Below are positions 57,172-59,162 of a stretch of 64,000 bases of DNA, piece by piece (the first letter of the stretch is position 1; each line of letters opens with the position of its first letter). This DNA is from Eledone cirrhosa (taxonomy: Eukaryota): NCBI GenBank assembly GCA_964016885.1, contig OZ024742.1, positions 174,468,001-174,532,000 on the forward strand, given 5' to 3'. The position numbers and the translations under genes were made by a program. The notes under the pieces were generated by a model. The model ran no database searches. It had not been told where the DNA came from and saw only the letters and a program-made list of their open reading frames with translations.

Positions 57172-57294
57172 AGTCCGCCATCAATAAAACAGGGAAAAAC
57201 CACTAGTGTATGGAATCTGTAACCTATGAAAGGCAGTATATAGACACGATAATTAAAAATATAAATTAAAGCTTTAATAAATACCTCTATAAAT

Positions 57295-57376
57295 ACACAC
57301 GTACAAATCCAAAGTGATCTGTTTCGCCAGTAAGTTGTTGACAGAAATGAAATAACCCAGATTCATCAATGTGTGT
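57295..57376 (-). ncRNA. Type-I hammerhead (copy A; U3 variant, weak helix II)
   Basis: ACACACA-UUGAUGA...GAAA-CAGAUC(ACUUUG)GAUUUG-UA-CGUGUGU. Confidence 0.65.
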
Positions 57377-57730
57377 AAGGCTATACATTTCAGACAACAC
57401 TAAGAGAATTTTTAAAGCAACCGTCCAACTACACGTATTTTAAAGTGCTCAGGATTTCCTCTCCTTTGAGCACATTATTTACAGGGAACGGCGAGAGTCT
57501 ATGGCTCCGTTAATGTATCGTGATATTTCACTCCTTATAACAGTCTTTCCTCTTTCTCTGTTTGGTTGAGTACACCTCTCTAAGTGATTTTGGGCTGCCC
57601 TTTTTAGCAACTCGTCCCTCAGAGGCTACTGGTTCACTGCCCGTAAACACGCTGTGACTTCTCTCTCCCACGTGTAGTTGGACGGTCGCTTTAAACATTC
57701 TCTTAGTGTTGTCTGAAATGTATAGCCTTC

Positions 57731-57810
57731 CACACGCTGATGAATCTGGGTTATTCCATTTATGTCAACAACTTACTGGCGAAGCAGATCACATTTGATT
57801 TGTACGTGTG
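57731..57810 (+). ncRNA. Type-I hammerhead (copy B; GAAG variant, weak helix II)
   Basis: CACACG-CUGAUGA...GAAG-CAGAUC(ACAUUU)GAUUUG-UA-CGUGUG. Confidence 0.7.
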
Positions 57811-58390
57811 TTATATAGTTATAGAGGTATTTATTTACGCTTTAATTTATATTTTTAATTATCGTGTCTATATTTTGCCTTTCATATGTTATAGATTCCA
57901 TACACTGGTGGTTTTTCCCTGTTTTATTTATGGCGCACTGTATCTCTCTCTAGTGTGTTACCTTTTCAACATATTGTATATATATATATATATATATATA
58001 TATATATATATATATATATATATATATATATATATATATATACATATGTATCTATATATATATACATATATATATATATATATATATATATATATATATA
58101 TATATATATATATATATATATATATATATATCACGATAAATTAACGGAGGCATAGGCCCTCGCTATTCCCTGTAAATAATGTGTTCAAAGGAGAAGTGAT
58201 CCTGAGCTCTTTAAAATACAATATGTTGAAAAGGTAACACACCAGAGAGAGATATATACAGTGCGTTATCAATAAAACAGCGAAAAAAACCCACCACTGT
58301 ATGGAATCTATAACCTATGAAAGGCAGACTATAGACACGATAATTAAAAATATAAATTAAAGCGTAAATACATACCTCTATAACTATATA

Positions 58391-58484
58391 ACACACGTAC
58401 GCATCCAAAGACACTAACCCAAAGATATGTTTCACCAATAATTTGTTGAAAGAAATAGGTTAGCCTCGGTTCATCAGCGTGTGT
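58391..58484 (-). ncRNA. Type-I hammerhead (copy C; intact core)
   Basis: ACACACG-CUGAUGA-ACCGA...UUGGU-GAAA-CAUAUCU...GGAUGCG-UA-CGUGUGU, giving a 7-bp helix I, a 5-bp helix II and a 6/7-bp helix III. Confidence 0.85.
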
Positions 58485-59162
58485 AAGGCTATACATTTCA
58501 GACAACACTAAAAGAATTTTAAAATTGACTGTCCAGCTGCACGTGGGAGAGAGAAGTCACAGCGTGTTTAAGGGCAGTGAACCAGTGGCCTCTGAGGGAC
58601 GAACTGCTAGAAAGGCCAGCCGAAAGCCACTCAGAGAAGTGTGCTCAACCAAACAGAGATAGGAAAGACTGTTATTAGGAGCGAAATATCACGATAAATT
58701 AACGGAAGCATAGGCCCTCGCTATTCCCTGTAAATAATGTCCTCAAAGGAGAAGAGATCCTGAGCTCTTTAAAATACAATATGTTTAAAAGGTAACACAT
58801 CAGAGAGTGTGTTATATAGTTATAGAGGTATTTATTTATGCTTTAATTTATATTTTTAATTATCGTGTCTATAGTCTGCCTTTCATAGGTTATATATTCC
58901 ATACACTGGTGTTTTTTTCCCCTGTTTTATTGATAACGCACTGTATATCTCTCTCTCTGGTGTGTCACCTTTTCAACATATTGTATATATATATATATAT
59001 ATATATATATATATATATATATATATATATATATATATATATATATATATATATATATATATATATATATATATATATATATATATATATATATATATAT
59101 ATATATATATATATATATATATATGAATTTACATGTGCATTTATATATACATATAAGATGGA

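Follow-up and report, generated by a model that had tools for sequence, protein, structure and literature searches.

Two insertions of a dispersed, non-coding repeat lie in the 64,000-nucleotide stretch of Eledone cirrhosa DNA analysed here (the window). The repeat has a unit of 541 or 554 nt with one type I hammerhead ribozyme motif, and its copies end at either of two 3′ positions on (TA)n tracts. It is very probably a non-autonomous Penelope-like element (PLE), or non-LTR retrozyme, copied by a borrowed PLE reverse transcriptase (RT)/GIY-YIG protein.

Two head-to-head insertions in the window

Four segments of one repeat were found in the order −, +, −, +, as originally predicted: arm A (57172-57436), arm B (57435-57977), arm C (58128-58807) and arm D (58807-58986). 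They had been described as a single head-to-tail cluster. They are instead two insertions, A+B and C+D, each arranged head to head, since the two pairs belong to different subfamilies (B vs C, 85%).

Arm A is the inverted, 5′-truncated arm of the first insertion. It lies on the minus strand, belongs to the B subfamily, covers unit positions 234-503 with 93.3% identity to the subfamily consensus, and is ended by an assembly gap of 200 N (56972-57171). Because all 61 classifiable pairs of the family combine the two 3′ ends described below (S1 and S2), arm A is predicted to continue into the gap through unit positions 504-541 and a 90-nt tail (about 128 nt), and then into (TA)n. Arm B, on the plus strand, overlaps arm A by 2 nt and is a full B-subfamily unit running from S1 to S1 and ending at S1 without a tail (95.6% identity to consensus). 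It is exactly one unit between two junctions, as had been stated, with a length of 541 nt and not about 558 nt. The 90-nt tail segment between S1 and S2 is internal to arm B (57437-57526, plus strand); in independent contigs from one sample, (AT)n directly follows the position equivalent to 57526.

A (TA)n target microsatellite (57978-58127) separates the two insertions. Arm C, on the minus strand and of the C subfamily, consists of unit positions 523-554, a whole unit and tail positions 1-90, ending at S2. Its 680 nt amount to 1.22 units with S1 junctions at about 58776 and 58218, which bears out the earlier description of some 1.2 monomers with a seamless junction and a period of 558. Its inverted partner, arm D (plus strand, C subfamily), runs from unit position 380, about 1 nt past the hammerhead cut site, to the unit end at S1, again without a tail, and is followed by a second (TA)n target microsatellite (58987-59125). 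Arms C and D are 96.3% and 96.1% identical to their consensus; the 93-96% identity of the four arms marks them as decayed copies.

At the left edge of the gap, a CUGAUGA that may be flanked by helix I and II strands (56945-56971) is probably part of another hammerhead element cut by the gap. A tRNA-headed SINE-like repeat lies at 59160-59300 (weak tRNA match at 59169-59226), and what appears by eye to be a decayed RTE-type LINE fragment at 59500-60560.

A high-copy family with two subfamilies

The 22-mer at the unit 3′ end, S1, has 2,184 exact matches in the genome (control, 0), and a 24-mer just past the cut site has 1,012. Searches with family DNA gave 2,528 and 2,611 candidates, 40 being scored in each. 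The genome-wide search that had been recommended thus revealed a dispersed, high-copy family with partial tandems, in which the longest arm reaches 1,812 nt, or 3.3 units head to tail. No arm in the window holds two ribozymes. The 541-nt head-to-tail joint is also present in independent contigs of one sample.

Consensus sequences from 28 and 23 full-length copies are 541 nt (B subfamily) and 554 nt (C subfamily) long, 94.6% alike and 39-40% GC; a 14-nt duplication in the helix III region is a C-subfamily feature. A monomer of about 558 nt, as first estimated, matches the period of arm C but not the units of the two subfamilies. The unit is indeed non-coding, no ORF exceeding the chance level and none being conserved between subfamilies. 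The longest, a 104-aa ATG ORF that starts inside CUGAUGA in one subfamily consensus, was rejected as a chance ORF, its length being reached in 3% of 500 shuffles and the other subfamily lacking it.

Some copies have multiplied locally, as tandem or segmental duplicates. Eight near-identical copies of one insertion (L044, L045, L051-L056) are spaced about 60 kb apart within a large tandem segmental repeat (G000:C12:17021770-17481899), and local copies were also seen at L231.

Two fixed 3′ ends, each used once per pair

Arm statistics were collected from 149 loci, all first-listed places on contig C1, picked by exact matches to the S1 22-mer or to the 24-mer past the cut site. Duplicates were removed, as were arms shorter than 25 nt or lying at the edge of a locus, which left 223 arms at 122 loci. 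There are two fixed 3′ ends, S1 at the unit end and S2 at unit position 90, 90 nt apart: 100 arms ended at S1, 93 at S2 and 30 elsewhere. TA-rich sequence followed 89 of the 100 S1 ends and 83 of the 93 S2 ends (172/193), in agreement with the predicted (TA)n targeting. The (TA)n target hides any target-site duplication; both start sites have a 2-5 nt TA-like match to it. The 5′ ends are scattered, with a median arm of 258 nt and 49 of 223 arms longer than one unit.

The arms of head-to-head pairs are combined according to a strict rule. Among 82 pairs, 61 were S1+S2, none was S1+S1 or S2+S2, and 21 had an unclassified end (p = 4e-19 if the ends were chosen independently; L268 and L269, among the 61, look like one segmental duplicate). 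Selection of loci by the S1 motif cannot explain this rule, as it would favour S1+S1. Adjacent tail-to-tail cases were seen only twice. The S2 arm extends back past S1 in 49 of the 61 pairs, so both arms copy the same sequence. At the 82 junctions, the arms overlap by at least 1 nt in 50 cases, are joined bluntly in six and are separated by filler in 26. In 41 of 43 pairs both arms belong to one subfamily. Non-consensus letters were shared at 37-41% among the pieces of one locus and at 10% between different loci, in a set that also included top-match loci. The subfamily agreement and shared variants indicate that each insertion was copied from one source.

The original prediction had treated the S1 junction as the boundary of the RNA monomer. 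This was not sustained, because S1 is a fixed genomic 3′ end, 172 nt 3′ of the hammerhead cut. Since the ends and their pairing match the ‘tail’ pattern of PLEs, S1 is most likely where reverse transcription starts, and not the joint of an RNA circle. One observation counts against our overall reading: the 5′ ends show no clear pile-up at the cut site, with four at unit 366-372 where 2.9 were expected (about 125 arms at risk), and 10 against 4.5 at unit 366-376 (p = 0.017, uncorrected), two of the 10 being TA-run artefacts. A pile-up at unit 351-357 was rejected as a mark of the cut site, as it coincides with the 14-nt duplication.

A probable PLE-type insertion pathway

Partial tandems, an inverted 5′-truncated copy, a 30-40 bp tail that is often at one end only, and a (TA)n bias are described as hallmarks of PLEs (PMC8557442), and the one-ended tail is described in the same way in PMC3846280. 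The fixed 3′ ends, optional tail, 5′ truncation and inverted arm found here are those of non-autonomous PLE derivatives. Together with the (TA)n target they fit PLE mechanics, as the proposal of PLE-type mobilisation had implied, and PLEs with RT and GIY-YIG domains are present in the genome.

According to the in vitro work in PMC11167929, PLE protein cuts and extends both strands, and two internal RT start sites bound the tail. By analogy, S1 and S2 would correspond to two such sites. The PLE protein would cut a (TA)n tract, and both broken DNA ends would be primed on template from one source, one starting at the internal S1 and the other 90 nt beyond it, at S2. The two cDNAs would halt at variable points and be joined head to head through short microhomology or filler. 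Their template would be longer than one unit and cross the ribozyme site; it could be a unit circle closed again after cutting, or a read-through transcript left uncut. From the one-of-each rule, a single complex would seem to allot S1 to one DNA end and S2 to the other. Against this part of the scheme, the in vitro account of the anole PLE in PMC11167929 gives no strand difference in start site, and such an assignment was not seen there.

The hammerhead motif

The family motif comprises helix I (7 bp), CUGAUGA, a 37-nt stem/loop II, GAAAC, helix III and GUA, and the core is intact in 75 of 105 copies. One type I hammerhead per unit, as had been claimed, is therefore a family-wide feature; ‘full’ was an overstatement for the window copies, of which A shows a C3-to-U change, B a GAAG and C a damaged helix III. 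The hammerhead of A (57295-57376, minus strand) has the core UUGAUGA, the C3-to-U change being copy-specific, and a predicted cut at 57302/57301. That of B is of type I (57731-57810, plus strand), with helix I formed by 57731-57736 and 57805-57810, CUGAUGA at 57737-57743, GAAG at 57781-57784 where the family has GAAA, a helix III of 6-7 bp followed by GUA, and a predicted cut at 57804/57805. The hammerhead of C with its 5′ flank (58507-58487) occupies 58391-58507 on the minus strand; it has an intact core (58477-58471), an A10.1-U11.1 pair, a helix III with the 14-nt duplication and a copy-specific mismatch, and a predicted cut at 58398/58397. Independent contigs of one sample carry the family letters at the mutated positions of A and B. 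The real helix III of the original prediction is found in the B subfamily (6 bp), but is interrupted by a U-U mismatch in the C subfamily and by an extra mismatch in window copy C.

Common variants (at least 10%) were found at 0/28 positions of the core and helix I, 11/37 of stem/loop II, 2/16 of helix/loop III and 38/459 elsewhere; the sole variable core position is the free N7. The core and helix I differ from stem/loop II (p = 0.0015) but not significantly from the rest of the unit (0/28 vs 38/459, p = 0.15), which weighs against our reading. So does the base of helix II, a helix of only 2-4 bp: the G10.1-C11.1 pair, given as highly conserved in PMC4209133, is missing from the family, in which 105 copies have A-C (63), A-U (37) or G-C (1) among their 10.1-11.1 pairs.

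The proposed check against Rfam gave no hammerhead match over 10 kb or on two 141-nt stretches. Neither could the motif be said, as earlier, to fold as a monomer hammerhead: without the 5′ flank, the isolated motif folds into a hairpin that buries the core and is favoured by 4.6 (B consensus), 7.7 (C consensus) and 13.0 kcal/mol (window C). A further point against our reading is that one of nine predicted frog retrozyme dimers is reported to have cleaved (bioRxiv 10.64898/2026.07.22.740005). The ribozyme is likely to be active in source copies.

Further tandem hammerhead repeats of about 460-510 nt occur at L092:6510-7419, L101:7718-9001 and other loci, and the genome has many other hammerhead families with a long helix II and a UA cut triplet.

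Predicted pairing between the 5′ flank and loop II

About 21 nt of the 5′ flank (unit 271-291, ending 2 nt before helix I) are predicted to pair with 313-334 in loop II at −17.7 and −17.1 kcal/mol, energies matched by 0 of 1,000 shuffles and by 0 of 453 and 0 of 466 other windows. In copy B, the flank strand at 57707-57727 (plus strand) is predicted to pair with loop II at 57749-57770. Inclusion of the flank raised the mean unpaired probability of the core from 0.45 to 0.73-0.79 (165 copies), and within the loop common variants occurred at 2/16 paired and 8/15 unpaired positions (p = 0.023). As the pairing crosses helices I and II, it forms a pseudoknot if all are made together; this long extra helix would then hold the helix II of 2-4 bp in place. 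A hammerhead braced in this way is likely; the helix of about 16-17 bp through the loop may also be an alternative fold or a folding intermediate, and not part of the active fold. Counting against the pseudoknot, changes within the family affect only one side of a pair, and a particular pair is disrupted in 19 of 159 copies. Window copy C still folds into an inactive hairpin with its flank, and the fragment 58484-58391, earlier proposed as a test piece for cleavage, is without the flank strand and is predicted to misfold.

A scan of sampled loci identified a sister family (L156; 1,031 candidates) with different sequence, a similar S1 motif and the same hammerhead layout. This retrozyme-like family, represented at L156:1040-1300, minus strand (G000:C1:64631239-64631499), has a unit of about 495 nt, with a GUC cut triplet, two TA-joined ends and a tail of about 82 nt. 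Because MAFFT left loop II out of structural register, the two families were compared by duplex energies and not by a formal covariation count. The sister family's own flank-loop duplex has −17.0 kcal/mol (1/1,000 shuffles), compared with −5 to −7 kcal/mol for cross-family pairings. The pairing thus appears to be kept, with changed letters, in a diverged family. In other long-loop hammerheads of the sampled loci, flank pairing was mostly absent and helix II is closed by itself; L026 and L033 are single long-loop hammerheads that possibly have flank pairing.

Circular or linear template

Most arms that reach the cut site pass beyond it (arm D starts there), indicating that templates were re-ligated or uncut. 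A circle model has been proposed for PLE/hammerhead RNA (PMC4209133), and we put the chance that a circular unit RNA served as template here slightly below even. The predicted circular fold is branched and 57-59% paired (z −2.4 and −2.8; 40 shuffles).

The same element and enzymes could also work without any circle, the template always being a linear, uncut read-through of a genomic tandem and the ribozyme cutting rarely or only with protein help; this, too, is in our estimate not quite an even prospect. At six dispersed places, copies that end in S1+(TA)n are preceded, upstream of the ribozyme, by more than 1 kb of shared foreign sequence; what follows them downstream is mostly unrelated, with a repeat in common at L313 and L316. 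Such a join requires an RNA that was linear and uncut, so that this kind of template can be used and was used for at least some copies. All six copies start at unit 289-301, without the pseudoknot strand; their ribozyme is therefore predicted to be crippled, and they may share one source, both points that count against an exclusively linear template. Insertion by the anole PLE is reported to be unaffected by ribozyme mutants and to proceed without ribozyme cleavage (PMC11167929), in favour of a linear template. The modest stability of the circular fold and the lack of a mutational scar at the cut site point the same way, as do internal differences at five loci that mix units with and without the 14-nt duplication. 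This mixing fits heterogeneous templates or slippage, and slippage could by itself account for loss of the duplication.

If the ribozyme cut, a linear template would be lost; the core and fold are nevertheless preserved in both subfamilies and in the sister family. Truncation would also be expected to erode tandems unless they were rebuilt. Tandem units resemble one another to about the same degree as opposite arms do (0.37 vs 0.37-0.41 of variants shared), which does not favour exclusively linear copying; as a discriminator between circle and multimer, this comparison was discarded because the values do not separate.

A fuller scheme for the lineage can be drawn, and we consider it unlikely to be right in all its parts. 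A near-absent helix II would be braced by the 16-17 bp pseudoknot, and only RNAs with their own upstream sequence would cut efficiently. Double cutting and ligation would give a 541/554-nt circle, which a PLE protein dimer would copy from two sites, one per DNA end. Copies without the flank would stop cutting and carry host sequence.

A composite repeat, in which more than 1 kb of non-coding DNA with CACGTG and TTTGGCGC motifs is fused to the upstream side of the ribozyme, is present at L231, L303, L306, L307, L313, L314, L317, L318 and L325; related copies of it without the unit also exist. We take CACGTG to be an E-box-like and TTTGGCGC an E2F-like motif.

Search for a coding partner

A GIY-YIG profile search gave 10,597 candidates, of which 150 were scored and 50 loci (30+20) inspected. 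These included Neptune-type ORFs of 938 aa with RT, GIY-YIG and a CxxxxCxxC linker, and a full-length Neptune-type copy has pseudo-LTRs (pLTRs) that end in (TA)n. No coding PLE sharing unit sequence was found among these 50 loci and 29 loci of a second family, the 79 being a small sample of the 10,597 candidates; apparent partner matches at the 30+20 loci proved to be AT-rich chance matches and neighbouring independent insertions. Spaced match clusters resembling pLTR-ORF-pLTR were likewise rejected, as separate insertions at L141 and as a local duplication of the composite at L231. The unit itself matched no PLE protein and has no RT + GIY-YIG ORF between pLTRs, the arrangement of an autonomous PLE.

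A single 5′ flank out of 337 runs directly into a PLE ORF, cut inside GIY-YIG (L166/L271). At L271:737-3900, minus strand (G000:C1:84944236-84947399), this young ORF is joined to 1.2 units; its family has 1,863 candidates, about 98% alike. The ORF was rejected as the coding core of the unit, as 29 other copies of its family (about 98% alike) carry their own, unrelated pLTR, with two 3′ ends into (TA)n. The chimera is compatible with a template switch onto partner mRNA, or with insertion and deletion, and gives a lead only, to a candidate partner. Linkage of the monomer to an RT/GIY-YIG ORF, an early suggestion for follow-up, was thus seen in one chimera but did not recur among the 79 PLE loci.

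That the units are what remains of the pseudo-LTRs of an autonomous PLE missed by sampling is improbable, even with 150 of 10,597 GIY-YIG candidates scored and 50 inspected. Their architecture is identical to that of PLE ends and one RT/GIY-YIG ORF, at L271, is joined to a unit, but that ORF is cut in GIY-YIG and belongs to a family with an unrelated pLTR, the unit resembles no PLE protein, and up to 3.3 units follow one another without a break. With one direct ORF junction in 337 5′ flanks, there is no sign that the copies are ordinary pseudo-LTRs of a coding PLE, one of the outcomes that the original prediction had named as fatal to it. A DNA-level repeat, such as a satellite or rolling-circle DNA element with the hammerhead as a passenger, is very improbable: the contig C12 series and L231 would suit it, whereas fixed 3′ and ragged 5′ ends, the use of each end once per pair, the TA target and the junction overlaps fit target-primed reverse transcription. 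An assembly artefact at the gap edge is scarcely credible, since, for all that arm A adjoins the 200-N gap and that inverted repeats and (TA)n are difficult to assemble, the same arrangement recurs at 82 pairs elsewhere, and in independent contigs units are joined head to tail and (AT)n follows S2.

Head-to-head pLTR ends (about 90%) of a Neptune-type family (L091) lie at 54140-54511 and 5623-5774 of the window and explain an inverted repeat that Rfam scored as a microRNA. The pLTR of this family has, by eye, an apparent minimal hammerhead with a U3-A8 core. A broken Neptune-type PLE ORF fragment at 62783-63854 (minus strand) has 50-62% aa identity to L091.

Comparison with known systems

With a small, abundant unit, two mapped start sites and pairs that follow the one-of-each rule without exception (61/61), the family allows direct tests of how PLE tails and head-to-head pairs are built, and of a circular as against a non-circular template. 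Its hammerhead is a variant missed by Rfam, and the predicted long pseudoknot, kept in two diverged families, gives guidance on construct boundaries. In the literature searched we found no report of a cephalopod retrozyme or of such a long flank-loop II pairing, and supplements may list such elements; neither ‘hammerhead’ nor ‘retrozyme’ occurs in the octopus repeat paper.

Metazoan non-LTR retrozymes and their RNA circles are established (PMC7229834), and are described as derived from PLE pLTRs, with lengths of 51-972 bp (bioRxiv 10.64898/2026.07.22.740005). A unit of 541-554 nt lies within this range, and the monomer is not, as first thought, longer than usual. Like those retrozymes, as they are described, the family has non-coding units of a few hundred nucleotides with less than 50% GC, one type I hammerhead in each, head-to-tail copies and PLEs alongside. 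They form long arrays, whereas here most arms are truncated (49/223 exceed one unit) and head-to-head pairs occur; helix II has 2-4 bp, and its loop of some 30 nt is predicted to pair with the 5′ flank. In the present family, no pLTR homology to a coding PLE was found at 79 loci.

Endonuclease-bearing PLEs (Neptune, Poseidon, Hydra, Naiad) share with it, in the accounts of PMC8557442, PMC3846280 and PMC11167929, the partial tandems, the inverted 5′-truncated arm, an optional tail at one end, the (TA)n target and a hammerhead upstream of the 3′ ends. They differ in having an ORF and a tail of 30-40 bp, in place of no ORF and a 90-nt tail. The anole PLE is described as starting without homology (PMC11167929), unlike the two start sites here with their 2-5 nt TA-like match.

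Minimal PLE hammerheads, as presented in PMC4209133, have in common with the present motif the type I topology, the PLE context and a weak predicted monomer fold. The present motif differs in its non-palindromic 6-bp helix III, its short helix II in place of one of 7-8 bp, and the lack of G10.1-C11.1. A pseudoknot between the stem I and stem II sides is said to be used by about 40% of hammerheads (PMC3088659, PMC11300833); such pairing takes the place of contacts between the loops and stabilises a stem II that is very short, as predicted here. The examples described there have 4-6 bp, compared with a predicted 16-17 bp or so in three segments in this animal retroelement, which has no extra stem-loop IV. 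The class of element is known and its link to PLEs has already been proposed in print; this family adds the predicted long flank-loop II pairing, which is new here, and the strict pairing rule.
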